Origin: an uncultured ANME-1 euryarchaeote
Lineage (GTDB): Archaea; Halobacteriota; Syntropharchaeia; Alkanophagales; Methanospirareceae
DNA: 43,166 nucleotides
Assembly (NCBI GenBank): GCA_965195275.1
Contig: CBDAFQ010000159.1
Location: 1 to 43,166, forward strand
Direction: 5' to 3'
A model generated the notes under the pieces. It was not told where the DNA came from. It saw only the letters and a list, made by a program, of their open reading frames with translations, and made no database searches. The position numbers were made by a program, and so were the translations under genes. Within the stretch, counting starts at the first letter, position 1. Each line of letters opens with the position of its first letter. This document shows positions 6,012 to 39,115 of the stretch, piece after piece.

Positions 6012-8330
6012 ATGAAGAAGTTTGAGATACATGATGCGAAAGATGATGATTTAAAGCGAATAAGTGAACTTATGGGCCTTTCGCTGAATATAGAAGAGAT
6101 GCGCACGATAAAGCGATATTTCCAGTTGAAGCGCAGGGCGCCAACGGATGTGGAGCTGCAGAGCATTGCACAGGCATGGTCAGAACATTGCTGTTACAAG
6201 AGCTCGAAAAAGATCTTGCAAAAATATATCTTCGGCATTGATGCGCCGCAGAGCATATTAGCGGTAAAAGAAGATGCCGGTGTGGTAGAATTTGATGCGG
6301 AGCATGCTTATGTCTTGGCGTTCGAGAGTCATAACCACCCTTCGGCGATAGAGCCTTACGGCGGTGCGGCAACAGGTATAGGCGGTATCGTCAGGGATGT
6401 GATCTGCATGGGTGCTCAGCCTATTGCATTGATTGACCCCTTATTCTTCGGTCCTCTGGATTATAGCTATGAGAAGCTGCCTGCGGAGGTGAAGCATCCA
6501 AAGTTCCTGTTTGATGGTGTTGTTGCGGGTATAAGCGACTACGGGAATCGGATAGGCATTCCAACGTGTGCGGGGATGGTATATTTTGACGATGGCTACG
6601 TGGGCAATTGCGTAGTGAATGTAGGCTGCGTAGGGATAATGAAGAAGTCCGATTTGAGCAGAAGCATAGCACGTGAAGGCGAGTTGCTTGTTCTGGTCGG
6701 AGGTAAAACCGGGCGAGATGGCATACACGGTGTTACCTTTGCTTCGGTAGAGTTAACAGGGGAGGAGGAATTCAGAAGTGCCGTTCAAGTTGGCGACCCG
6801 ATAACAAAGGAGCCGCTAATGCATGCGATATTAGAATCGAATGATAAGAAGTTGATAAGTGGGATGAAGGATCTCGGTGGCGGCGGGTTATCGTGCGCAG
6901 TGAGCGAGATGTGCCATGCGGGTGGGTGTAGTGCAGAGATACATTTAGATAGGGTGAAGTTAAAGGAAGAAGGGCTAAGCGCATGGGAGATCTGGGTTTC
7001 GGAATCCCAAGAACGGTTTTTAATCGGAACATCAGAAGCGAATGTGGACGAGCTGCTGGCGATATTTAATAAATGGGATGTGGACGCGGTGATTCTAGGA
7101 CAAACATTTAAAAACCTTTCTTCTGAAGTGAATGCGTCACCAAAGAAACTAAAGATTATTTACCGTGGTGAGAATATATTCGAGCTGGATACAGATTTTC
7201 TTGTGTCATGTCCACTTTACGAACGTACGATGGAGATAAAGGCACGTGATGAGGCAGAACCTCTAATGGATGCGCCTGATGACTATAATGTCATTTTAAA
7301 ACAGTTGCTTGCAGCACCTAATATCGCATCGCGCGAAGGTGTTATAAGACAATATGACCATGAAGTGCGAGCGTCTACGGTGATAAAGCCGATGCAGGGG
7401 ATAATAGGGGAAGAGACGCATGGCGATGCAGCGGTGATAAAGCCACTGGAAGAATCCTATATGGGACTCGCTATTACTTCTGACGTAAATCCATCATATT
7501 GTAACATTAATCCGTTCTGGGGTGCTGCGAGTGCGATAGACGAAATATGTAGGAATTTGACTGCGGTTGGTGCAGTGCCACAGTCATTTGCAGATTGCTT
7601 GAATTTCGGTAATCCCGAGAAGCCGGACCGGATGGGGGACTTCTATGAATGCTGTCGTGGTTTAGGTCACATGGCTTCTTCGCTTGGCGTACCGTTTGTG
7701 AGTGGTAATGTGAGCTTATATAATGAGTCCGCAGCTATGAATGAATCTATCCCACCCACACCCGCTATTCTGGGCATAGGGATATGTGAAGATATAAGGG
7801 AATGCGTTACTGTGGATTTAAAGGAAGCGGGGAATTTACTGTTTCTTATTGGCGACACAAAGAAGGAATTGGGTGGCAGTGAGTATTATAATTTGCGGTG
7901 TGTGGAAGGAGGATTAGTGCCGAGGACCGACCCAAAAGTGCTGAAGCGGTCTATGGTTGCGTTATTGGACACGATGAGGGCGGGGTTAGTAGCAAGCTGT
8001 CATGACATTTCGGAAGGTGGGCTCGCAGTTGCAGTATGCGAGATGAGTATGGGCGGAGATAGCGGCGTTTACATTGATATTGGTGCTGTGAATCCCGAAC
8101 TGAGGAGCGATTACAAGTTGTTCTCGGAATCTAACACGAGGTGGGTGGTGGAGGTGCCGAAAGCGGAAGTAGGAAGGTTTGAAGCGTTGATGGCTACACA
8201 TGGCGTTTGTATAATTGAAATAGGGACGGTGACAAAAGATAAGCTGGTCAGTATAAGCGACAATGGCACGGAATTGGTGGATATTTCGATAGATGCTGTG
8301 AGAGCGGCATGGGGGAATCATCTTACGTGA
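6012..8330 (+). CDS. purL: phosphoribosylformylglycinamidine synthase subunit PurL (FGAM synthase II)
   Basis: 772 aa. Contains ESHNHPSAIEPYGGAATGIGGIVRD and duplicated AIR-synthase-like domains characteristic of PurL. Confidence 0.9.
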   Translation: MKKFEIHDAKDDDLKRISELMGLSLNIEEMRTIKRYFQLKRRAPTDVELQSIAQAWSEHCCYKSSKKILQKYIFGIDAPQSILAVKEDAGVVEFDAEHAYVLAFESHNHPSAIEPYGGAATGIGGIVRDVICMGAQPIALIDPLFFGPLDYSYEKLPAEVKHPKFLFDGVVAGISDYGNRIGIPTCAGMVYFDDGYVGNCVVNVGCVGIMKKSDLSRSIAREGELLVLVGGKTGRDGIHGVTFASVELTGEEEFRSAVQVGDPITKEPLMHAILESNDKKLISGMKDLGGGGLSCAVSEMCHAGGCSAEIHLDRVKLKEEGLSAWEIWVSESQERFLIGTSEANVDELLAIFNKWDVDAVILGQTFKNLSSEVNASPKKLKIIYRGENIFELDTDFLVSCPLYERTMEIKARDEAEPLMDAPDDYNVILKQLLAAPNIASREGVIRQYDHEVRASTVIKPMQGIIGEETHGDAAVIKPLEESYMGLAITSDVNPSYCNINPFWGAASAIDEICRNLTAVGAVPQSFADCLNFGNPEKPDRMGDFYECCRGLGHMASSLGVPFVSGNVSLYNESAAMNESIPPTPAILGIGICEDIRECVTVDLKEAGNLLFLIGDTKKELGGSEYYNLRCVEGGLVPRTDPKVLKRSMVALLDTMRAGLVASCHDISEGGLAVAVCEMSMGGDSGVYIDIGAVNPELRSDYKLFSESNTRWVVEVPKAEVGRFEALMATHGVCIIEIGTVTKDKLVSISDNGTELVDISIDAVRAAWGNHLT

Positions 8331-11574: not shown

Positions 11575-12369
11575 TTATAGTTCCGATATTCTTTTCTCAA
11601 GATATTTTTTTAAATGGTTGTGAATTTTTCGTATATCATCAGTATCTGGCAGGGCGGTAATGATTTTCTCAATAATCCGCCTTTCTTGAATATAAAGGAA
11701 TGTCCGTGTAAAATTGATGTCGAATATCCAGCCCAGTTGCAGGAGTTTCATATCATTAAATGTTTTCAAATAATGAGAATTTGAAACCCTGTTGTTAAGG
11801 ACATCATCAATAAAGCAAAGAGAATATTCAGGTGTATCGGGAAGTTCAAGTTCCAATGCGGGGTTATGATGCCTATGTCGTTCCCTATAATAATTTGTCA
11901 CAACGTACCATATATCCAATTTGTCCGCATCCCGTATTAATTTTGAATGCAGTTCAGAGATTTCATCAGCATTGTCGGGAACTTTACGTACATTGTGATA
12001 TTCTATGGCGTTATAAACGATGGTTTGTTCCGTTTTTGTTAGTCTGCTTAATATGTTAGTCGCTTTTAAAACCTTCAGCCCAAGAGATGCATGGTTTTCC
12101 GACATTCGATCATCAAAAGTGCCATATGTCTTGATTTGTTCAAAACGACCTATATCGTGAAATAATGCAATGGTCTCCGCCAGACGAAGTGCATTTCTAT
12201 TTAGATTCAGCGCTTTGCCTAACTGAAGAATCTCCTTACAAACACGTAACGTATGTTCTTCTTTAAGTCTGATATTCTGTTGGGTTTTTGGATCTTCCGT
12301 GTAGAAAGATTCTACATAATTCCGAAACCATGAATGGAAAAATGCAGTGTCCACATCATTCTCTATCAT
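11575..12369 (-). CDS. HD-domain metal-dependent phosphohydrolase
   Basis: 264 aa. HD signature ALFHDIGRFEQ with upstream His (EEHTLRV) and downstream D (IRDADKLD). Confidence 0.7.
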   Translation of the reverse strand: MIENDVDTAFFHSWFRNYVESFYTEDPKTQQNIRLKEEHTLRVCKEILQLGKALNLNRNALRLAETIALFHDIGRFEQIKTYGTFDDRMSENHASLGLKVLKATNILSRLTKTEQTIVYNAIEYHNVRKVPDNADEISELHSKLIRDADKLDIWYVVTNYYRERHRHHNPALELELPDTPEYSLCFIDDVLNNRVSNSHYLKTFNDMKLLQLGWIFDINFTRTFLYIQERRIIEKIITALPDTDDIRKIHNHLKKYLEKRISEL

Positions 12370-19154: not shown

Positions 19155-20399
19155 ATGAATATGATAAAAACACAAATCCCCTACGGCTCGAAGCTGATAG
19201 ACATCGAGATTGAAGGAGAACTATTAGACCCTATCGACAAAAGTGCTGGAAAAAACAAGAGCTATGATGTGATAAAACACGCACTACAAAATCCTATTGG
19301 TACAAAACGGCTACGAGAGATAGTAAATACGCAAAAAGATGCGGCGATTGTAATTGTCGTGGACGACCACACGAGGGACGCACCTACCGAGAAGATGCTT
19401 GATGTTTTAATTGAAGAGATCGGACATACAGACCAGATCACCGTGCTCGTGGCTTGCGGTACACACACCCCACCAACAGAGGAAGATTTAAAAAGAATAC
19501 TTGGTAAACATCTTTCTCGCTTTGATGTGGAGATCCATAATTGCGATGCGCAAGATCTGGTATACGCAGGTACGACAAGTAGAGGGACGCCCGTGAGTTT
19601 AAACAGGACATATGTGGACGCAGATATAAAAATTCTAACAGGCGATATAACTTTGCATTACTATGCCGGATTTGGAGGCGGAAGAAAGAGCATACTCCCT
19701 GGTATATCTTCACGCGAGTCGATAAAAAGGAACCATGCTCTCCTCGTTGATGAACACGCTAAAATAGCTAATACTGAAAATAATCCAGTACATTTAGACA
19801 TGTGTGAAGCAGCGTCATATGCTCCACCTGATTTTGTGCTAAATGCAGTCGCCGACGCATCGAGAAATTTGATAGAAGCTTACGCAGGAGAGTTAAACGC
19901 AGTGTTTCTTAAAGGTGTTGACGTGGCTAAGGACCTGTACCTACGTAAAACCACTAATTTATTTGACGTTCTTTTGGTTAGTGCCGGTGGATTCCCAAAA
20001 GATAGGAACCTGTACCAGGCCACAAAGGCTATTGAAAATTGCTTTCGGGTAATAGTCCCGGGTGGGAAACTGATTTTAGTAGCAGAAAGCCGCGAGGGAA
20101 TAGGTGACCAATATTTTGAAGAGTGGATGAACAAATATGCAAGCTATGAAGAAGTAGAAGAGGCAATAAAAGCGAACTTTGTACTTGGAGGACATAAGGC
20201 ATATTATATAAGAAGAGTAATGAAGTACTTACAACTGTCTCTTGTATCAAATCTCGATAGACAAACGATAAAGAGATGGGGAATAAATGCATATACGTCT
20301 GTATCGGATGCAGTTAAAGAAGAAATAAATATAAACGATAAGATTAAAGTGGGTATAGTCAAAGATGGTAAGGATACTTTAATAGTTCCTGCACTATAA
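19155..20399 (+). CDS. larA: LarA-family nickel-pincer-cofactor-dependent racemase/epimerase (DUF2088)
   Basis: 414 aa. Motif HYYAGFGGGRKSILPG plus a conserved His-containing N-domain (VVDDHTRD, ACGTHTP). Confidence 0.7.
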   Translation: MNMIKTQIPYGSKLIDIEIEGELLDPIDKSAGKNKSYDVIKHALQNPIGTKRLREIVNTQKDAAIVIVVDDHTRDAPTEKMLDVLIEEIGHTDQITVLVACGTHTPPTEEDLKRILGKHLSRFDVEIHNCDAQDLVYAGTTSRGTPVSLNRTYVDADIKILTGDITLHYYAGFGGGRKSILPGISSRESIKRNHALLVDEHAKIANTENNPVHLDMCEAASYAPPDFVLNAVADASRNLIEAYAGELNAVFLKGVDVAKDLYLRKTTNLFDVLLVSAGGFPKDRNLYQATKAIENCFRVIVPGGKLILVAESREGIGDQYFEEWMNKYASYEEVEEAIKANFVLGGHKAYYIRRVMKYLQLSLVSNLDRQTIKRWGINAYTSVSDAVKEEININDKIKVGIVKDGKDTLIVPAL

Positions 20400-23396: not shown

Positions 23397-24290
23397 TCAA
23401 AATAAAGCTCCCGTTACGGCTTCTGACTTTATCTTCAGTAGGTAGCCTGCATACAGTGATTTCTTTATCTCACAAATCTCTGATAGTTTCTTATTTCCTA
23501 TCTCTATCTCTTTTATCTTCTCTATATCCTCCACTTCTATCTTTACTCGTAAACCATCCAGTTGTATAACATTAGGCAATTCCTCTCCTGTTTTAGGCAG
23601 GATAGTCTTCTCTATCATATCTTTTATGAACAAAGGAGAAGCAGCTATTGGATCCTCCTCTATATCTAACCTCTTCTCAGCTAAAGCTCTTTCTAACTCC
23701 GAAGCTACATCATATAGTCGATCTATCTCATCTTTATTTCTCATTCTAGCAGTCTTCCGCCCTACACCACCTACATAGTGCTCTAATTCCATGTCCGATG
23801 GACCTCCTACTATTATATAGGGTATGTCAATGCTATTGCATAATTTCACTTTCTCTTCTATGCACTCTTCAAAAGTACCAAAAATAAACACTGCCGCATC
23901 AAATTCATCTATTATCTGCTTCTCTTGTGTTGTCATCTGGGCTATCCTCCTCCCAACGCCCCGGGCCAGCCCCATCATATTAGTAATCGCACCACTTCTA
24001 CGCAGAAATTCTGCTATATCACACATTGGATCGACAGCGTGATGCTTTCCAAGAGAAGGAACAACTATTATTATCTCAGTTCCAGCCAGAGGCAACTCCT
24101 TGTACTTCCCACCGAGTTCCTTTATCTTATTCCTTATTTCTCGCTCATCCTCTTCGGGGAATGCTAAATGCATCATTGTCTCGGTCTGCATAACAGATTC
24201 TTGCAATATAAACCCGCCTAAATCCCCTACTAACTCTTTCAACTCGTAAAACTTATACACTCCCCCTTCAAACATCATTATCTTATACAT
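23397..24290 (-). CDS. mmp7: methanogenesis marker protein 7 (McrC-like, MCR activation complex component)
   Basis: 297 aa. McrC-like core IIIVVPSLGKHHAVDPMCDIAEFLRRSGA. Size and position after the mmp17-like gene fit. The call rests on size, order and motif only. Confidence 0.6.
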   Translation of the reverse strand: MYKIMMFEGGVYKFYELKELVGDLGGFILQESVMQTETMMHLAFPEEDEREIRNKIKELGGKYKELPLAGTEIIIVVPSLGKHHAVDPMCDIAEFLRRSGAITNMMGLARGVGRRIAQMTTQEKQIIDEFDAAVFIFGTFEECIEEKVKLCNSIDIPYIIVGGPSDMELEHYVGGVGRKTARMRNKDEIDRLYDVASELERALAEKRLDIEEDPIAASPLFIKDMIEKTILPKTGEELPNVIQLDGLRVKIEVEDIEKIKEIEIGNKKLSEICEIKKSLYAGYLLKIKSEAVTGALF

Positions 24291-24828
24291 ACTCTCTCAC
24301 CATCTCTCCCACTTTATTCTTCTGTTCTTCACTTATCGGATTTTCTGAAGCTATAATAACAACGGAATTGGTAGAATGCATAGGCGACCGAACTCTTGCA
24401 CCTTCTGGTATTATAGTATCTAAAGCATACAATATTCGTGTTACTAAATCATCTTTCGGATCATAAAGTACCAAATCTAAGAGTTCCTTTATTTCATTAT
24501 CCTCTAATTTTAACAATAGCTCCAATCTACCTACTTGCTCAACTTTTTCTCCGTATTTATCCCAAAATAAGGCAAGTAATTTAGGCGCATATCTCTCTGT
24601 TGTAATCTGTAACTTTTTTCCTTCCCGGAGCGTTATGTCCCATACCGTAACAGGTTTTGACACACGCCCTATCTTAACAGCGATAATAAAAACGAACTCC
24701 TTCGGGTTGCAATGCATATAAACATGGTCTATATTACTTCTTAGCCCGGCATCTCGAAAAGTATCCTGACAGATCTTCGTGTATGATCCATTTGCAAAAT
24801 CACTCACCCCTTCTACTTTTACCTCCAT
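24283..24828 (-). CDS. mmp17: methanogenesis marker protein 17 (tentative)
   Basis: 181 aa. Overlaps the downstream gene by 8 nt. Lies between the mmp3-like and mmp7-like genes, matching the known size and order of this conserved cluster. Confidence 0.5.
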   Translation of the reverse strand: MEVKVEGVSDFANGSYTKICQDTFRDAGLRSNIDHVYMHCNPKEFVFIIAVKIGRVSKPVTVWDITLREGKKLQITTERYAPKLLALFWDKYGEKVEQVGRLELLLKLEDNEIKELLDLVLYDPKDDLVTRILYALDTIIPEGARVRSPMHSTNSVVIIASENPISEEQKNKVGEMVREYV

Positions 24829-24886
24829 CTCAACCTCCTTCTCCCTTATTATCTTTATTTTATAAAGGGAACATAAATTTAGTAAC

Positions 24887-26359
24887 TTATATATCCCTTT
24901 TTTGCTTTTTTATCCTCTGGCCCGAGACGCACCCACTGCCTTGGGTGCCACCTATGGGATTTCCAGGGCTTCCAAATTGGTGCATACATCTTCCAAGAAC
25001 CGCGGCACCCCTCCCAAGTGCATCATCTGCGAATATCACCTCATTGTCCATATTCCTACCATATAGGTCACTCAACTTCTCCAGTATTAACTCTGGCTTC
25101 CTCCCGGTAATACCCGCCCTACCGGTGATTCCTATTTTCGTATCGGGTAATAATATCCCTTCCTCTTTTGCTATCCCCACTAACTCTTCAACGACACATG
25201 CCGCCACCTCGTCTATTACTGCCATAACATAGCCCATGCTCTCTTCACGATGTACATCTGTGCCTATCTCTGCTATCTTAGGCAGGTCTGAAAGGTTATC
25301 TCCAGCATCTACGCCTATCAGCGTGACACCACTTTTTCTCCCCGCATCCACATTTACCGGTGACCCGCCAAAAAGTGTTCCGGACCCAATTTTCTCTATT
25401 CTCAAAAGTTTCATAACATCTTCTGCATAACTTTTCACCACGTCTTTCTTTACTTTTCGCTTTAAGTTACCCTGTGAGCAATCAAGTACAGAAGGATATT
25501 TCTCGCTTACAATATGCGAAATAAAAGCATCGGAGATTGCCCCTGCCAGACCACAGAAACTACCAGTAACTTTTGAATACGGCACTTGGTCATCGGTCAC
25601 ACGACCAGAGAGTGTAGTCCCAAAATCCAATGATAGAACGGGATTTCGATAGTCAACATCGAGCCATTTCGCGGCTTCTTTAAGACCCGCAGTTACAAGC
25701 TCGCCCTCCATCTCATTCGCTACTAAGGACTCGCCCGCAGGTGCTTCGTTACTGGTCACCGCGCCGTTGAAATATGTCTTCTCCATCCGTGAAAACTTCC
25801 TCAGGTCGGGATGGATGTCATTTACTGTCATAGGCGAGATCATCTTCCGCGGTGGGACCCCGGCTGCCATGCAGCCATTAGCCAGAGCTTTTATTACGCC
25901 CTGCATCTCATCTATTGATGAAAACCCCGCTGTTACTCCTGAGGACCGTACCACGAAATGTAAATCAGGAATTGTTATCCCAGCAGCACTTGAACATTCT
26001 TGTAGCGTCTTAGCCACTAACTTTGCGATAGAATCTTCAGAGAGTTCGACCATTGTTATAGTATGACAAAATGCAGAATCATGCGCTAATGCTTCTCGTG
26101 TCATCCTAACAGCTTTATCCAAGATATATGTCTTCCCGCTTTTCAGGTCGGTCGCACTCAATATAGTTTTAGTGGTGCTATTGCCAAGCTCAACACTAGC
26201 CACGATGAAGATAGGCTTTAACGTGAGATCGCCTCTTGAAAGGCGTAATATGAAAAACAAATCACTATAACTAACCTTCTGCGTCTTTAGCAGTTTCGGA
26301 TGATGCTTTTTAAATAGCCCCATTGTCTCATTACTCCTGATAACGCACACTCTAAACAC
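24887..26359 (-). CDS. mmp3: methanogenesis marker protein 3 (UPF0288 family); true start probably downstream of 26359
   Basis: About 430 aa of conserved-looking sequence begins at IVASVELGNSTTKTIL. The first 55-60 aa of the tracked ORF look non-genuine; a GTG within IVAS (around 26203) or the Met at 26323 are alternative starts. Confidence 0.6.
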   Translation of the reverse strand: MFRVCVIRSNETMGLFKKHHPKLLKTQKVSYSDLFFILRLSRGDLTLKPIFIVASVELGNSTTKTILSATDLKSGKTYILDKAVRMTREALAHDSAFCHTITMVELSEDSIAKLVAKTLQECSSAAGITIPDLHFVVRSSGVTAGFSSIDEMQGVIKALANGCMAAGVPPRKMISPMTVNDIHPDLRKFSRMEKTYFNGAVTSNEAPAGESLVANEMEGELVTAGLKEAAKWLDVDYRNPVLSLDFGTTLSGRVTDDQVPYSKVTGSFCGLAGAISDAFISHIVSEKYPSVLDCSQGNLKRKVKKDVVKSYAEDVMKLLRIEKIGSGTLFGGSPVNVDAGRKSGVTLIGVDAGDNLSDLPKIAEIGTDVHREESMGYVMAVIDEVAACVVEELVGIAKEEGILLPDTKIGITGRAGITGRKPELILEKLSDLYGRNMDNEVIFADDALGRGAAVLGRCMHQFGSPGNPIGGTQGSGCVSGQRIKKQKRDI

Positions 26360-33125: not shown

Positions 33126-33956
33126 ATGTTAGAGCGATTGGACTCAGGATTATATGAATATAGCAGCTTTGAGATAAAGGAGGAGCCTTTTTATTTACCG
33201 CAAGGGCGCGAGGTTGCACTATTTGAAGCAGCATATAAGAATAAACTTCCTATTATGCTAAAGGGGCCGACAGGAAGTGGTAAAACGAGATTAGTTGAGC
33301 ATATGGCCTGGAAGTTAGGTCGGCCGCTCTATACTGTTGCCTGTCATGACGATTTAAGTGGCAATGACTTGATCGGTCGGTATATAATTAAAGGAGACGA
33401 TGTTGAGTGGATTGATGGGCCTCTTCTTATGGCGGTAAAGAATGGCGGAATCGTCTATCTGGACGAAGTAGTAGAAGCGCGAAAAGACACAACTGTCGTC
33501 ATTCATCCATTAACCGATCATAGAAGGTATATGCTAGTAGAGAAATTAGGTAAGATATTCTATGCTCCTGACGACTTTATGCTGGTAATGAGCTATAATC
33601 CCGGTTACCAGAGTGTGCTAAAGGAATTGAAACAGAGCACAAGACAGCGTTTTGTCAGTATCGCACTTGGCTGGCCCGGCGAAGACTTAGAGACAGAAAT
33701 TGTGCAGCAAGAGACGGGTGTTGACGAAGATACAGCAAGAAAGTTGGTAAAAGCGGCGAATAAAATACGTAATCTCATTCATCAGGGACTAGAAGAAGGT
33801 GTTTCGACAAGGGAACTTGTCTATGCGGCTACATTGCTAAACTGTGGTGTGCCAACGCGAGATGCGCTATATTCTACTATGACTGAGCCGTTAACGCACG
33901 ATAGTGACCTCAAGAGGAGCATAGAAGAGATACTTAAGAACTATTTTGAGGTGTGA
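33126..33956 (+). CDS. CbbQ/NirQ/NorQ-type MoxR-class AAA+ ATPase
   Basis: 276 aa. Walker A GPTGSGKT, Walker [47 protein letters not shown] and [13 protein letters not shown] closely resemble what I remember of CbbQ/NorQ proteins. Confidence 0.85.
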
Positions 33957-33968
33957 CTTTTATTTATT

Positions 33969-34286
33969 ATGAAAATCCTACTTTTTGTCTCTTCTTCGTG
34001 TCCGCATTGTCCAGCAGCCGAAGCGATAGTGAACAGAGTGGTGTCAGATTATTCGGGGTATGGATTGTCATTAAACAAGATACGAATGAAAACAAAAGCA
34101 GGGAAGAAACGTTCTTCTATGTATCATGTTAGGGCAATACCAACCACATTGATACTTGATGATAATGGGCATGAACTCAAGAGAATGGTTGGTGTCATGC
34201 GCGAAGATACTTTAAGAGCGTCCATAGAAAAACTGCTTGGGTTGAGAGAATCAGTTTTAAGCAGAATCTTTGGCCGGAAAAAATAG
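33969..34286 (+). CDS. thioredoxin-fold protein (CPHC active site)
   Basis: 105 aa. SSSCPHCP near the N-terminus and a cis-Pro-like AIPTTLIL. Starts 12 nt after the AAA+ gene. Confidence 0.65.
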   Translation: MKILLFVSSSCPHCPAAEAIVNRVVSDYSGYGLSLNKIRMKTKAGKKRSSMYHVRAIPTTLILDDNGHELKRMVGVMREDTLRASIEKLLGLRESVLSRIFGRKK

Positions 34287-34328
34287 ATCTAAAGGTAAAA
34301 GATGAAAAAGCTCATTTGAGTAGATATA

Positions 34329-34553
34329 TTGGCGGAAAAGAACAAACAAATATTCTTTAAGTGGCTAAAACTAAACGTTTTGTGGTTCATAGGTGCTTTT
34401 GTCGTAGCTTTGCTCTTAGTACTACTGTTCCCGGCTACAATGCTGGGATTAAGATTATGGGGTGCCTACACGATAGCAGTTGGACTTTTGAGCTTCAGAA
34501 ATTTTTGGTGTGAGTTTGGTGCGTGGTTTGAGGTTTTGGGGGCGTTGAGGTGA
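34329..34553 (+). CDS. hypothetical small two-TM membrane protein (TTG start)
   Basis: 74-aa ORF with two hydrophobic helices. Non-ATG start and no recognised family. Confidence 0.35.
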   Translation: MAEKNKQIFFKWLKLNVLWFIGAFVVALLLVLLFPATMLGLRLWGAYTIAVGLLSFRNFWCEFGAWFEVLGALR

Positions 34554-34733
34554 GAAACAGAAAGAAAAACGATGCGCCAGTGCAAAAATACGCAGGTTAT
34601 TTGTATAACCTGCACCTATCTAAAAGTTAAGAGGCAAAAAATGAGTGGGGCGGTACAACAAAAGGGCGGTATCTGCGAACTTGGTTTGGATATACTGAAG
34701 TTATATGCCATGCTCACTAGGAGATAATAAAAC

Positions 34734-35357
34734 ATGAATCCCGATGATTTAATAAAGCAAGCTAGAAGAATTATTGCAAATAAACAGTCAGAGCTCGGAA
34801 TGCTCGTTGAAGCTAGGGAATTTCTCAGGGTCTATGCAGGGGAAAAAAGTGTTTTCTTCCAAGCTCTAAAGGAAGTTAGACCTTCTACCAGTCAATACAT
34901 AAGCATTGCAGGGGATGTAGTTGATATCCTAACAGCATTTAGTAGTTATGTGGAAAATGGCCTTCTTGAAGGCATCTCAATTGAGAGGAAGGCTCAGATA
35001 GATGTTGTTTCTGACTTCCTCGGTCAAGCGGATACCTTGCTAAATTCCAATGAAGTACATCCTGCAGCACCGGCTGTTATCATTGGAGCTGCGCTTGAGG
35101 AATTTCTAAGAAATTGGATTGATGAGGGAGTTTTGAGCCTTGGAGGGAAGAAGCCAAGTTTGGATTCTTATGCGAAAGTTTTAAGAGAAGCGGAGTTAAT
35201 TACGAAACAAGATGTCAAGGATATAACATCCTGGGGTGGTCTTCGAAATCATGCTGCACATGGTGAATGGGCTGAAGTAAACGATAAAAATAGAATATCC
35301 CAAATGTTAGGAGGAGTTAACCTTTTTATGCGAAAATATGGTGAGCACGGCATATAA
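34734..35357 (+). CDS. HEPN-like domain protein (Rx4H motif), DUF4145/Abi-like
   Basis: All-helical-looking 207-aa protein with a C-terminal WGGLRNHAAHGEW (R171-x4-H176). Flanked by 180-nt and 213-nt non-coding spacers. The perfect hairpin AACTTGC-TTC-GCAAGTT (35390-35406) follows the stop. Confidence 0.55.
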   Translation: MNPDDLIKQARRIIANKQSELGMLVEAREFLRVYAGEKSVFFQALKEVRPSTSQYISIAGDVVDILTAFSSYVENGLLEGISIERKAQIDVVSDFLGQADTLLNSNEVHPAAPAVIIGAALEEFLRNWIDEGVLSLGGKKPSLDSYAKVLREAELITKQDVKDITSWGGLRNHAAHGEWAEVNDKNRISQMLGGVNLFMRKYGEHGI

Positions 35358-35570
35358 CAAAGAATTTACGGCTTCGTTTCACTACGCCTAACTTGCTTCG
35401 CAAGTTCGTAAATGCCTAATCGTAATTGAAAGCAATCATGAAAGGAGGTTGAAATGAGTGTGCCAAGCAAAATTCATAATATCTTGTTGGTGAAAAATCC
35501 AATATAACCTCAAATGAAGCACAGAATAAATCCATAAAAAGTAGTTTAACGTGTAAAGACTAACAAGAAA

Positions 35571-37154
35571 ATGGTAAGGTATTCTATCAAGAAGACTTAC
35601 GGAACGAGAAAATTAAAGAAATTGCTTAACGTGTATTACGAAGGCGAAGTGCTCGACAATTTAGTTAGCGAATTGTATCCTCTGCTCAATAGCGTAGGCT
35701 ATGAAGCCTTAGAGAGGATCGTAGGTCTTTGTAACCAGATCGCAGGGGATCCTAGTGTACGAACAGCAGTTACTCTACTTGAAGAGAGCCCGGAGCTCGT
35801 TGAGAAATTGCTATTGTATGGCGATACAGATTTAGTCATGAATGTTTATGCTCTTTGCAGTCAAGTAGCCCGGTATGGCGAGGGTACTGCTATCCGGTTG
35901 CTTGAGCAGAGCCCGGAACTAATAGCAAGAGTAGGCTATGACGGTTTAGAGAAGATCGCAGGACTAAGTAGTCAGGTAGCCCAAGCAGACAGTTTCGTCG
36001 CTGCTAAGTTACTTGGGATAAGTCCGGAGCTAATAGATCGAGTAGGCTATGACGGTTTAGAGAAGCTAGCAGCTCTTTGTAGTAGTGTCGCCAAGGATCG
36101 CCGATTTGTTACTGCCCTGCTTGAGATGACCCCGGAACTCATAGATAAAGTAGGTATTGACCTTTTAGAGAAGGTGGCAGAACTGTGTAGTCAAGTCGCG
36201 GGGTATAGTAGTAGAACTGCGGTACGGTTGCTTGGGCAGAGTCCGGAACTAATAGATCGAGTGGGCTATGATGCATTAGCGAAGGTAGTCAGACTTTGTA
36301 GTCAGGTAGCGGAAGAGGATAGTTTTGTGGCTGCCCGGTTGCTTGAGATGAGTTTCGGACTCATTGAAAAAGTCAGTCCTGATTGTTTAGGTAACCTGGC
36401 AGAACTTTGCTGTCTGGTAAACAGGGATGATAGTTTTATCGCGGCTCGGGTGTTTGATGGTAGTCCGGAACTCATTGCGAGATTAAACCGGTATGGCGAT
36501 ACGGAATTAGTTACGAGCGTTTACGGTCTTTGCAGTCAGGTAGCCCGGGATTATAATTGGCGAACTGCGGTCAGGTTGCTTGGGTTAAGTCCCGACATCA
36601 TTGAGCGATTGCTACGGTATGGCGATAAAGAGTTAGTGCTGAATGTTTATGGGCTTTGCAGCCAGGTAGCCCGGTATAGCGTGCGAACCGCAGTTAGTTT
36701 GCTTGAGGTGAGTCCTGACCTCATAGGTAGAGCGAGTTATGATGGTTTAGAGAAGGTAGCATATAAGGCATCAGAAATAGCAAGGGTGAAAGGCGAAGAG
36801 AAAGCAACTTCTTTCGTGCGTGGTGAGTCGTCCGAATATGCTGACTTCTTTGAGGCTATCACAGAAGGTCTTGAACTGAAGAGAGTGAAACCCATTCTGT
36901 TACATTATCTGAATGCGTTGTTGGGCTACCGAATCGAGATTGTGGAAGCCAATGGGGCCACGACAGACGGTGAGCGGATCTTTCTGCCGGTGAGAATAAA
37001 AGAGTTCGAGGAAGAAGATAGGAATTTTATCATGTACAAAGTTATGGCGACACATGAAGAAGCGCATCTGGAATATGGCAGTTTTGATTTCGAGCTGATG
37101 CGGGTTCAGGATGTTGCGAGTAGGATAAAGAGGAAGTATGGTGAGTGCAAATGA
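35571..37154 (+). CDS. repeat-array protein carrying the N-terminal segment of a NorD/CbbO-like protein
   Basis: About ten 38-aa helical repeats (SPELI.RVGYDGLEK.A.LCSQVA....F.AA.LLE.). These are followed by TDGERIFLPVRIKEFEEEDRNFIMYKVMATHEEAHLEYGSF, resembling the N-terminal region of NorD/CbbO. The stop overlaps the next ATG (ATGA). Confidence 0.7.
   Translation: MVRYSIKKTYGTRKLKKLLNVYYEGEVLDNLVSELYPLLNSVGYEALERIVGLCNQIAGDPSVRTAVTLLEESPELVEKLLLYGDTDLVMNVYALCSQVARYGEGTAIRLLEQSPELIARVGYDGLEKIAGLSSQVAQADSFVAAKLLGISPELIDRVGYDGLEKLAALCSSVAKDRRFVTALLEMTPELIDKVGIDLLEKVAELCSQVAGYSSRTAVRLLGQSPELIDRVGYDALAKVVRLCSQVAEEDSFVAARLLEMSFGLIEKVSPDCLGNLAELCCLVNRDDSFIAARVFDGSPELIARLNRYGDTELVTSVYGLCSQVARDYNWRTAVRLLGLSPDIIERLLRYGDKELVLNVYGLCSQVARYSVRTAVSLLEVSPDLIGRASYDGLEKVAYKASEIARVKGEEKATSFVRGESSEYADFFEAITEGLELKRVKPILLHYLNALLGYRIEIVEANGATTDGERIFLPVRIKEFEEEDRNFIMYKVMATHEEAHLEYGSFDFELMRVQDVASRIKRKYGECK
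35682..36800. repeat. tandem 114-nt (38-aa) coding repeats, about 10 units
   Basis: Units are recognisable at DNA level, e.g. gagtaggctatgacggtttagagaag occurs twice (around 35929 and 36043). Confidence 0.8.
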
Positions 37155-38767
37155 AGAATGGAAGTGGCGATAGTGACCTAGAACATTTCTATGCTCTCTT
37201 TCCCGAACCGGAATTAGCGAAGGATCTTATAACATTACTTGAAGATTACAGAATCAATTCACGGCTAAAGGCTGAATATCCCGTTCTTGGCGTACAAATA
37301 GCGCAAATGGACGTTCATACGGTATCTAAAAGACCTTCTCTTAACGAATTAGCTAATGATAAACAGAGGGTGGTAGAGCTTATAGCACAACGGTTAAGTG
37401 CCAGAACGACAAAAGAGCAAGTCCCGGGAAATTTACTGCAAACACTTGAGCAAGCTTTATTAGTATGCCAAACATTATCTTCGTCACATGCGGATATACA
37501 CGAAACTGCAAGGGTGGCCGCGGAATTATATTTCTTGATCGATGACCATTTTCAAGGTCCCTATCACAAAATGGATCCTTTTTCTGCTCCTTTAGATCAA
37601 TCGCAAGTGAATCAAAACATAGGCAATTTCTGTAGAACAGCGCGAAAAATTAGCGAGAATATAGATTGCGAAACAGACAAAAGCCCACCGGGCGATGCTA
37701 AAAAAGCAAATGACTTTGGCGGCGTGCCATCTGAAGATACAATAAGAGAACTGCTAAGAGCATTGTACAAAGAGAAAGGAATCAAACCCAAGGCGGTTGA
37801 GTCACGAATTGATGCGCTTGAGCCGAACAAAGTGCAGGATTATTTAATAGACCTTGAAACATTAATTACGGCTGAAAACGGACTTCAAAGCGAACGAGAT
37901 ACTTATTTATATCCGGAATGGGGTATTGATATTAACGATTATAGGTTAAATTGGTCGCGGATAAGAGAGCGGATTTTGGAGGGTGAGTCAGACGAATTCT
38001 ATCAGGATACAATCCAGAAGTATGCGGGACAGATAAAGATAATCAGGCGGGAATTCCAGATGCTCAGACCAGAAGGTTTAGTAAAATTACGGGGGCAATT
38101 TGATGGCGATGATATTGATCTGGATGCAACGGTTCAATATTTTATTGATAAGCGACTGAGGCTCTCACCATCCGAAAGGAACTATGTACGAACCGAAAAC
38201 AGAACACGCGATATAGCCGTTGCATTTCTCGTTGATATGAGTGGCAGTACGGTGGGCTCAACAATATTGTGTGAAAAGGAAGCTTTGATTTTAATGTCGG
38301 AAGCATTGAAGGAATTAGGCGATGCTTTTGCTATTTACGGGTTCTCGGGGTATGGACGCGATAATGTGGTCTTTTTTTTAATCAAAGATTTTGAGGACTC
38401 TTATGACCTGCGAGTGCAGTGCAAAATATCTACAATGACGAATAAACAGTCTACCAGAATTGCACCTGCTATCAGACATGCCACAACGAAATTAAGAAGA
38501 AGAGAAGAGAGGACAAGGATGCTCATTCTGTTGAGTGACGGTAAGCCGTTAGACCGGGATTATTATGGTAATTACGCGATTGAAGACACGAGAATGGCAT
38601 TGAAGGAGGCGCAACGATATGGGATCAAGTCGTTTTGTATTACTGTTGATCGTGAGGCAGCGGAGTATTTGCCACGAATGTATGCCGATAGCAGATGGGT
38701 TGTGATAGATGATGTCCTGAAACTGCCGGCTAAAATAACGAGAATATATAAGCGGTTTACGACGTGA
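37151..38767 (+). CDS. NorD/CbbO-like protein, C-terminal part with von Willebrand factor A domain (MIDAS)
   Basis: LITLLEDYRINSRLKAEYPVLG (NorD-like LED.R motif). VWA MIDAS AFLVDMSGST, then ILLSDGKP and ITVD. ATG 37151 is preferred over the tracked GTG 37145. Confidence 0.8.
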   Translation: MKNGSGDSDLEHFYALFPEPELAKDLITLLEDYRINSRLKAEYPVLGVQIAQMDVHTVSKRPSLNELANDKQRVVELIAQRLSARTTKEQVPGNLLQTLEQALLVCQTLSSSHADIHETARVAAELYFLIDDHFQGPYHKMDPFSAPLDQSQVNQNIGNFCRTARKISENIDCETDKSPPGDAKKANDFGGVPSEDTIRELLRALYKEKGIKPKAVESRIDALEPNKVQDYLIDLETLITAENGLQSERDTYLYPEWGIDINDYRLNWSRIRERILEGESDEFYQDTIQKYAGQIKIIRREFQMLRPEGLVKLRGQFDGDDIDLDATVQYFIDKRLRLSPSERNYVRTENRTRDIAVAFLVDMSGSTVGSTILCEKEALILMSEALKELGDAFAIYGFSGYGRDNVVFFLIKDFEDSYDLRVQCKISTMTNKQSTRIAPAIRHATTKLRRREERTRMLILLSDGKPLDRDYYGNYAIEDTRMALKEAQRYGIKSFCITVDREAAEYLPRMYADSRWVVIDDVLKLPAKITRIYKRFTT

Positions 38768-38769
38768 TA

Positions 38770-39115
38770 AGGGTTAGGGTTTAGGCACTGTCGAATATTC
38801 CAGCTTGTTGACAAGAAGTTTCATCGCGGATTGCCCTTGCGGCTACCCCATCCATTCGGGGTAATCCTACTTCGGAACACGCAGGGGGTAACGTTTGCGT
38901 GGTAAGCTCGCAGGACAACGTGGAAAACCTAAAAGTCCGGTTTAGATCAACTGCAAGGATAAAAAACACCATGAAGAGCGTAATGCGAACCATTGTAAGA
39001 GTTGTAAATTCGAATAAGCGAAATTGGGATGATACGCGTAGACCAAAATTTGCCCTAACTCGAAAGGGTTATGCAATGCTTGAGCGTCTGCTATTTAACC
39101 ACACGGCGCAGCATC
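38770..39115 (+). ncRNA. candidate structured non-coding RNA of unknown family (strand and ends uncertain)
   Basis: 352-nt spacer between convergent genes with no credible ORF, locally GC- and purine-enriched. Three-way junction at 38828-38867 (GGATT[GCC-CTTGC-GGC][ACCCC-ATCCATTC-GGGGT]AATCC). Hairpins at 38878-38901 and 38929-38945. Possible closing helix 38773-38780 with 39052-39059. Confidence 0.35.

Follow-up and report, generated by a model that had tools for sequence, protein, structure and literature searches.

MoxR/VWA chaperones insert metals into key enzymes or rescue them, with nitric oxide (NO) reductase, Rubisco and cobalt chelatase as examples; for most members of this group, the client is unknown. 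Here, we describe a locus of this kind from an uncultured ANME-1 euryarchaeote (GenBank assembly GCA_965195275.1, contig CBDAFQ010000159.1), in which a gene for a CbbQ/NorQ-type ATPase is accompanied by two open reading frames (ORFs), ORF1 and ORF2, that together encode a NorD/CbbO/CobT-type VWA adaptor. The stretch of DNA analysed ("the window") comprises positions 1–43,166 of the forward strand, with the locus under study at positions 33126–38767.

Three described systems are closest to the locus. NorQ–NorD, which inserts Fe_B into cytochrome c nitric oxide reductase (PDB 9qh4–9qhg; PMC13036017), shares with the present locus the type of ATPase, the order of the adaptor parts and the adjacent gene pair. 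Unlike in NorQ–NorD, no norCB genes are found near the locus, the adaptor carries a repeat arm of 365 amino acids (aa; up to ~800 aa in relatives), is split inside its N-terminal domain and keeps an H-x-E-A-H motif, and the P-loop cysteine of the NorQ redox switch is replaced by serine in all 53 family ATPases. To the ATPase of the Rubisco activase CbbQ–CbbO, the similarity is just as high (PDB 5c3c and 6l1q; E 6.5e-92 and 3e-89). CbbQ–CbbO consists of a hexamer and one long (~770 aa) VWA adaptor with a MIDAS motif, an arrangement which is counted as a likeness, with a hexamer predicted for the present ATPase; the differences are that no Rubisco gene lies nearby and that the adaptor is split and has a repeat arm.

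The third comparison is with the aerobic cobaltochelatase CobS–CobT–CobN (bioRxiv 10.64898/2026.07.21.739949). ORF2 matches the CobT_C family, the N-terminal domains of relatives match Pfam CobT, and the predicted N-terminal domain shows the same order of a helix, a three-stranded sheet and a helical bundle. A possible analogue of the built-in repeat arm is the armadillo-like solenoid of CobN, which touches CobT close to the MIDAS in CobSTN. In contrast to CobSTN, the ATPase is of the CbbQ/NorQ type, and there is neither a CobN-like subunit nearby nor an adjacent gene of a tetrapyrrole pathway; a large recurrent (CobN-like) neighbour is missing from the related loci, too.

We interpret the locus, with a probability of roughly 0.6, as an uncharacterised clade of the NorQ–NorD/CbbQ–CbbO/CobS–CobT group of ATP-driven remodelling chaperones, in which the adaptor has a repeat arm and is split in two genes. 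The system is real and conserved; its architecture (a split, repeat-extended adaptor) is new, and the kind of chaperone is known. No paper on this family was found in the literature on ANME, Smithella or Syntrophus.

Organisation of the Locus

All six ORFs proposed in an initial annotation, which had been made from the sequence alone, are present at the positions given there. The adaptor genes start 1.6 kb past the ATPase gene. The features are as follows.

33126..33956 (+): ATPase, CbbQ/NorQ-subfamily MoxR AAA+, 276 aa; based on Pfam, solved-structure matches and motifs
33969..34286 (+): thioredoxin-fold gene with CPHC, a lineage-specific insertion and not core; based on Pfam, otherwise in locus L007 only
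34329..34553 (+): hydrophobic mini-protein of 74 aa with a TTG start, accessory in a few close ANME-1 relatives (L001 and L019 only)
34734..35357 (+): 207-aa protein with a putative C-terminal HEPN-type domain (RNHAAH at 35244–35261), a lineage-specific insertion and not core
35571..37154 (+): ORF1, adaptor part 1, 527 aa; repeat arm, then the first third of the NorD/CobT-type N-terminal domain
35691..36785 (+): ten helical repeat units, ORF1 residues 41–405; probably an armadillo/HEAT-like alpha-solenoid
36786..37151 (+): NorD/CobT N-terminal domain, first part; strands around TDGERIFLP (36963–36989), helix HEEAHLEYGSF (37053–37085)
37151..37154 (+): ATGA start/stop overlap of ORF1 and ORF2, the fission point, in a variable surface loop ~30 aa past the HEEAH helix
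37151..38767 (+): ORF2, adaptor part 2, 538 aa; rest of the N-terminal domain, linker, putative pre-VWA finger region and VWA domain
Motifs in ORF2 (+): FYALFPEP 37187–37210; LEDYRI 37238–37255; finger region ~38045–38161; MIDAS DMSGS 38234–38248; C-terminal tail RIYKRFTT

The ATPase

The ATPase belongs to the CbbQ/NorQ subfamily of MoxR AAA+ ATPases, in agreement with the initial annotation. Its 276 residues match Pfam AAA_5 (1.3e-32) and CbbQ_C (3e-28) and align end to end with the solved structures of NorQ (9qhd_A, E 9e-94) and CbbQ (5c3c_A, E 6.5e-92); as judged by eye from the alignment, most aligned positions are identical to NorQ and CbbQ. Walker A (GPTGSGKT, 33264–33287) and Walker B (VYLDE, 33453–33467) are both intact. 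The CobS model TIGR01650 yields 19 bits (E 6e-4) at a cut-off of 558. NorQ can be inactivated by a P-loop disulfide, C46–C68 (PMC13036017). Where NorQ has the P-loop cysteine, the family ATPases (53 of 53) have the serine of GPTGSGKT; the partner cysteine of the NorQ disulfide (TVACHDD) is retained in this clade.

The Two-Gene Adaptor

The division of the VWA partner between two coupled ORFs was confirmed. The ORFs overlap by ATGA at 37151–37154, and a GGTGA Shine-Dalgarno-like motif, read from the junction sequence, ends 6 nucleotides (nt) before the ATG of ORF2. ORF1 has no Pfam, NCBIfam or PADLOC match even at E 10; its residues 407–523 align to residues 35–163 of the 711-aa NorD-annotated protein P0159 (E 5e-14). 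ORF2 matches Pfam VWA (4.7e-9) and CobT_C (1e-5), and its residues 252–536 align to residues 354–643 of NorD over 285 residues (E 4.7e-42). The VWA fold of the model has its best match in the NorD VWA domain (9qh6_G, E 4.9e-19), followed by the MIDAS domains of Rea1/Midasin; the MIDAS motif DMSGS itself occupies ORF2 residues 362–366.

Just before the VWA core, ORF2 residues ~299–345 align with high posterior probability to the equivalent segment of JtNorD. By position, this stretch would correspond to the finger of PdNorD (403–448); the AlphaFold2 (AF2) helices there have low pLDDT. The MIDAS, the putative finger region and the C-terminal tail, RIY-x-x-[LF]-T-[TA], are conserved in the family, the tail in nearly all members. 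The parts are arranged as in NorD and CobT, i.e., N-terminal domain, linker, putative finger segment, VWA/MIDAS and conserved tail. In some sources, automated annotation already names both halves "NorD".

The relationship of the two halves is best seen in a natural fusion from a close relative (P0051), which is 70% identical to the end of ORF1 and 72% identical to ORF2 and joins them by a short variable linker. In its AF2 model (mean pLDDT 86.8), the fission point lies in a loop (residues 147–157) between confident helices; accordingly, the cut is predicted to fall inside the folded N-terminal domain and not in the flexible linker, which is contained wholly in ORF2. The N-terminal domain alone was modelled with a pTM of 0.82. 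Alignments and models together indicate that a single NorD/CobT-type adaptor is divided over ORF1 and ORF2, which appear to be translationally coupled. NorD/CbbO/CobT-type adaptors are recognised as single polypeptides, from which the present adaptor departs by its two genes.

The Repeat Arm

A repeat array precedes the NorD-type N-terminal segment, as noted in the initial annotation, albeit with a period of 37 instead of 38 aa and a length of ~365 instead of 380 aa. Ten units of 36–42 aa (mode 37), with a mean pairwise identity of 47%, fill ORF1 residues 41–405; they come in a 37-aa and a 41–42-aa form. Autocorrelation of ORF1 gives its highest score, 0.38, at lag 37, compared to a maximum of −0.34 in 500 shuffles, and no tandem repeat was detected in ORF1 at the DNA level (TRF). 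The repeats are old and visible at the protein level only. Outside the family, they resemble only the armadillo-repeat protein ODAD2, and that weakly (E 0.0096); the last unit is helical in the AF2 model; the arm probably forms an armadillo/HEAT-like alpha-solenoid.

The arm is no peculiarity of this genome: it is present in every family member examined, with a length of 365 aa in the window and up to ~800 aa in the family. At least 12–13 recognisable units are found in the one-chain adaptors of Syntrophales. In these proteins of ~1470 aa (L036–L070), ~840 aa precede the H-x-E-A-H motif, and a stretch at ~230–420 is missed by the repeat profile and may hide another domain.

Distribution of the Family

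Protein searches returned ~50 ORF1-like proteins of 440–590 aa, many ORF2-like proteins of 527–577 aa and a few longer single-chain forms. A locus scan, for which one genome per species was used, recovered 66 loci, and 70 loci were fetched for neighbourhood comparison. The 66 loci comprise ~30 from ANME-1 (Methanophagales), one labelled Syntrophoarchaeum, five from Desulfobacteraceae and ~27 from Syntrophales (Smithella, Syntrophaceae). At the near end of this range, ORF1 of the window is 93% identical to that of a Methanophagales metagenome-assembled genome; in the ~33 loci of Syntrophales and Desulfobacteraceae, the VWA half is 46–53% and the ATPase 74–80% identical to the window proteins.

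The core that is conserved across related loci consists of the ATPase and the adaptor. In 53 of 68 loci, the ATPase gene immediately precedes the adaptor; the median gap is 12–28 nt, and most loci have 12–30 nt between the ATPase gene and ORF1. Fused adaptors occur in 26 bacterial and three archaeal loci, split ones in five bacterial and 14 archaeal loci: in Syntrophales, the adaptor is a single protein of 1460–1497 aa, in Desulfobacteraceae it is split with an ATGA overlap, and in ANME-1 it is split in 14 loci and fused in three. The synteny of the trio is stable, following mtr in ANME-1 and serA and purA in Smithella. A rough neighbour-joining tree places the ANME-1 clade beside the Syntrophales clade, with the split Desulfobacteraceae outside.

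Three contigs (L053, L027 and L060) labelled Desulfobacteria, Bathyarchaeia and Minisyncoccales carry ANME-1-type copies that are 58–77% identical to ORF1. These are probably binning errors, with recent transfer as the other possibility.

Proposed Mode of Action

The reading of the locus as a remodelling chaperone draws on homologies, motif conservation and a model of one domain, while the assembly and the role of the arm are argued by analogy with NorQD and CobSTN, for both of which cryo-EM work is available (PMC13036017; bioRxiv 10.64898/2026.07.21.739949). By this analogy, six ATPase subunits would form a ring, with the finger of the ORF2 VWA domain sitting in its pore and the C-terminal tail of ORF2 holding the post-sensor-1 loop. 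The two-piece N-terminal domain of ORF1 and ORF2 would dock on the small subdomain of one ATPase subunit, and ATP-driven rotation would stretch the linker. The stretching, in turn, might pry open a client gripped by the MIDAS site on one side and by the N-terminal domain or repeat arm on the other, allowing the insertion of a metal or cofactor or the release of an inhibitor; the repeat arm would most likely serve as the client-binding platform. For force to be transmitted in this way, ORF1 and ORF2 would have to reassemble non-covalently into one domain.

Several observations weigh against the chaperone assignment. No client was identified; of the neighbours, a nitroreductase (nine of 70 loci), a cation-efflux transporter (six) and a ferritin-like protein (four) recur most often. 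The linker is intact within ORF2, but the N-terminal domain, which would have to bear load, consists of two chains. Furthermore, many ANME-1 contigs have no ORF2 within 10 kb of ORF1 (L003, L010, L021), and some ORF2 homologues have lost the MIDAS segment (P0084). The loss may stem from decay of the system in some populations of ANME-1, or it may have arisen in assembly as an artefact. In P0084, P0085, P0103 and P0104, which are close ORF2 homologues of ~450 aa, it is an internal deletion of ~80 residues (ORF2 333–414) that removes the MIDAS.

Neighbouring Genes and the Question of the Client

The initial annotation had seen neither a Rubisco nor a NO reductase (NOR) client nearby, and the search of the neighbourhoods bears this out. 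None of the 942 neighbouring ORFs of related loci contains the RbcL signature G-x-[DN]-F-x-K-x-D-E, there is no Rubisco gene among the annotated ORFs of the window, and no haem-copper oxidase was found among the families present in at least three of the 70 loci (eight assigned by Pfam and the rest by sequence reading, with singletons not all annotated). A conserved client encoded in cis was considered and rejected: upon clustering of the 942 ORFs, no non-core family was present in more than nine of the 70 loci. Among the recurrent neighbours, the nitroreductase occurs in both domains of life, and the cation-efflux transporter gene is often divergent from the ATPase gene; together with the ferritin-like protein, they give weak hints at metal handling.

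In sister lineages, including L073 and L074, no known client was found either. In L073 (7175–12012), a distant archaeal relative, a CbbQ-type ATPase and a one-chain adaptor of 787 aa are followed 11 nt later, on the same strand, by a thermosome (Cpn60_TCP1) gene.

One alternative is a dedicated chaperone of the ANME-1 methane pathway, which would, e.g., help to assemble the corrinoid-containing Mtr complex or MCR or to load them with a cofactor. The genomic setting invites this idea. Upstream of the locus, the window contains genes for McrC, DUF2113 and DUF2114 and mtr genes, as had been annotated (mtrE by annotation, the other mtr genes as read from ORF translations), and in ~10 ANME-1 loci the ATPase gene follows mtrH on the same strand, with a gap down to 93 nt (L039); in addition, the adaptor is related to CobT, the adaptor of cobalt chelatase. 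However, the same system is present in the ~33 loci of Syntrophales and Desulfobacteraceae, which show no MtrH match within ±10 kb, and the adjacency to mtr is confined to one archaeal order and may be inherited gene order only. The carriers among Syntrophales and Desulfobacteraceae are not known to possess Mtr or Mcr at all. A dedicated role in the methane pathway is possible but unlikely. The McrC-like/DUF2113/DUF2114 gene cluster is located at 23397–26359 (−), just upstream of the mtr operon.

The N-Terminal Domain and Its H-x-E-A-H Motif

The N-terminal domains of four out of 12 relatives match Pfam CobT (PF06213; 7.4e-5). The CobT N-terminal domain is reported to be composed of a helix, a three-stranded sheet and eight helices and to resemble peptidase M48C (bioRxiv 10.64898/2026.07.21.739949). 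In the model of the present domain, the elements follow the same order as in CobT_N, and the motif H-x-E-A-H-L-E-[YF]-G-[ST], which is kept in nearly all family members, is located on the first helix after the sheet. The 35 archaeal sequences in which the motif was detected all have HEEAH; the 24 bacterial sequences have HQEAH (18), HEEAH (four) or HLEAH (two). In NorD-annotated relatives such as P0159, both histidines are absent at this position. From the CobT matches and the published description, we infer a zincin (M48-like) ancestry of the domain.

This raises the alternative that the N-terminal domain is an active zincin metallopeptidase of the M48-like type and that the machine is an AAA+-coupled processing protease instead of a cofactor-insertion chaperone. 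The position of HEEAH on the first helix after a small beta-sheet, its uniformity in archaea and the reported resemblance of the homologous CobT domain to M48C would fit such an activity. Yet, the position of the catalytic glutamate is occupied by glutamine or leucine in 20 of the 24 bacterial orthologues, with the two histidines and the following glutamate kept. Moreover, no peptidase family was matched, a Foldseek search of the domain model against the PDB gave no fold match (best E 0.36), and canonical NorD relatives are without the motif. Proteolysis is, therefore, improbable, and because the position of the catalytic glutamate is not conserved, a metal-binding or structural role of H-x-E-A-H is favoured.

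Origin of the Split

The division of the adaptor could also be an artefact or a matter of expression, with a frameshift error, pseudogenisation or programmed frameshifting hiding what is truly one protein. Unsplit versions in close relatives (P0051, at 70–72% identity, and L022, L023 and L028) are what such an explanation would call for. Against it, the split is kept in ~19 loci, at identities from 93% down to 36%, with intact, full-length halves, and the split loci show three junction arrangements: ATGA, TAA-ATG, and an overlap of 29 nt in a different frame. In L001 and L016, the halves are separated by other genes, which marks each half as an independent gene. There is no slippery heptamer at GCAAATGA; as the junctions also differ between lineages, programmed frameshifting was rejected, and the explanation as a whole is very unlikely.

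The split is equally no unique or fixed trait, since Syntrophales and three ANME-1 loci have a one-chain adaptor. Depending on the lineage, the junction is ATGA, TAA-ATG, an overlap of 29 nt in a different frame or an in-frame fusion, always in the variable stretch after "...KYG". L074, a lineage further away, has its split at the same place but a different gene order. Given these junctions, the tree and L074, fission and fusion have happened several times, and the split can be regarded neither as a sequencing error nor as a fixed novelty.

Genes Inserted into the Locus

Between the ATPase gene and ORF1, the window contains three further genes. The thioredoxin fold with CPHC (33999–34010) stands as annotated, with a PF00085 score of 29.9 bits at a cut-off of 23.5; a model of the MJ0307 type matches at 8.1e-11, which is below the model's own cut-off. 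The gene starts 12 nt after the ATPase gene. A role of this thioredoxin as redox partner of the ATPase, an idea derived from the C46–C68 disulfide of NorQ, was rejected because the P-loop cysteine is replaced by serine in all 53 family ATPases. The 74-aa ORF, with a TTG start and two hydrophobic stretches, has no family match; from its sequence, it is plausibly a protein with two transmembrane segments.

The annotation of the 207-aa protein as HEPN is upheld by profiles at the level of the family, whereas its own best match to HEPN_RiboL-PSP reaches an E value of only 0.058. The protein has RNHAAH at residues 171–176, with R171, N172 and H176 nearly invariant in a family of 1188 clusters at 50% identity. 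Among 36 relatives, nine match DUF4145, eight HEPN_RiboL-PSP (best 8.8e-6) and two HepT-like models, about a quarter matching overall. There is no solved-structure match to the 207-aa protein. A HEPN assignment is accepted for the family as a likely one.

In the 70 loci, the 207-aa HEPN protein and the thioredoxin recur in L007 only and the mini-membrane gene in L001 and L019 only. L007 is an 87% relative, in which further genes are inserted, too. The idea that these genes are parts of the system, as initially proposed, has to be given up, since orthologous loci lack them or carry them variably. Only the window, L001, L007 and L019, which belong to one ANME-1 subclade, have more than 400 nt inserted between the ATPase gene and ORF1. 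In other ANME-1 genomes, different cargo lies between or after the adaptor halves: L001, L010 and L021 have a HEPN–nucleotidyltransferase toxin–antitoxin pair on the opposite strand, L003 and L020 a type I restriction system, and L010 and L021 a type IIG-like restriction-modification enzyme. The locus is, thus, an insertion hot spot inside an operon, and the thioredoxin, mini-membrane and HEPN genes are passengers unrelated to the mechanism; the hot spot explains the presence of the HEPN gene without its being a component.

Cargo at the boundary of the halves is located at 11593–12361 in L001, 7298–8018 and 8141–11017 in L010, 8571–9330 and 9419–12256 in L021, and 11742–21584 in L003. The sole other copy of the 207-aa HEPN gene (L007, 9166–9785) is recovered in two tblastn pieces that overlap by one base, suggesting a frameshift near the C-terminus. 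In several ANME-1 loci, an element of ~130 nt precedes different genes; it combines a promoter-like box rich in A/T, a Shine-Dalgarno motif (AGGAGGT) and a micro-ORF that encodes MSG-x-VQQKGGICELG... and has 27 codons in the window. The window has one copy, at 34565–34727 (+), just upstream of the HEPN gene; elsewhere, the element is found at 7655–7794 in L001, 7821–7954 and ~8986–9130 in L007, 109–252 in L009, and 7265–7376 in L019.

The presence of the HEPN gene had prompted the suggestion of a defence module, in which the ATPase, the VWA halves, the thioredoxin and the membrane protein would make up a MoxR–VWA ternary conflict system with the HEPN ribonuclease as its effector. MoxR–vWA ternary conflict systems, which share with the locus a MoxR-class ATPase, a vWA protein and a third gene, are defined by a VMAP, iSTAND, FtsH or beta-propeller third component and by variable effector domains fused to the C-terminal side of vWA (Kaur et al. 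2020; PMC7159879). None of these third components is present here, the sole conserved third gene being the N-terminal piece of the adaptor; no effector follows the VWA domain, as the protein ends with VWA and the conserved tail; the context is one of stable housekeeping synteny (mtr in ANME-1; serA and purA in Smithella); and PADLOC gave weak P-loop matches only. Even with a HEPN-type protein inside the locus and HEPN–nucleotidyltransferase (HEPN–MNT) toxin–antitoxin pairs and restriction systems inside or next to it in several ANME-1 relatives, a defence system is hardly credible and fails because the HEPN, thioredoxin and membrane genes are absent from most orthologous loci (the first two recur in one of 70), the HEPN proteins of other loci being of a different family, on the opposite strand and nucleotidyltransferase-paired, as is typical of self-contained toxin–antitoxin cassettes.

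Other Features of the Window

A LarA-type gene (lactate racemase family, nickel-pincer) is located at 19155–20399 (+). Starting 77 nt past the ORF2 stop, positions 38844–38978 (+) match the Rfam group II intron family D1-D4-7 with 47.8 bits at a cut-off of 34, and 350 nt around this match are 79% identical at the same post-ORF2 position in L006. The match is accompanied by neither a D5/D6 piece nor an intact reverse-transcriptase ORF, which suggests a conserved remnant of an intron or a structured RNA put to new use.

Conclusions

Beyond the assignment as a remodelling chaperone, a more far-reaching reading can be offered tentatively. The family might be a distinct, undescribed class of AAA+/VWA metallochaperones with a zincin-derived N-terminal domain that still binds metal via H-x-E-A-H. 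Its solenoid arm would recruit a cytoplasmic metalloenzyme of anaerobic metabolism that is common to ANME-1, syntrophic Syntrophales and Desulfobacteraceae; there would have been one transfer between bacteria and archaea; and the machine would tolerate a cut inside a folded domain. If this possibility were true, the system would constitute a natural split-protein test of the "twist and stretch" model of NorQD.

A tempting misreading is corrected as well: the HEPN and thioredoxin genes are passengers and not parts of a new defence system. The clade is restricted to methane- and alkane-oxidising archaea and to bacteria that are their typical syntrophic or sulfate-reducing neighbours. It keeps a metal-binding-like motif which canonical NorD has lost, and its built-in repeat arm probably names the client. 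With an adaptor that naturally occurs as one chain or as two chains cut within a domain, it provides a ready-made experiment on how force passes from the ATPase ring to the client.

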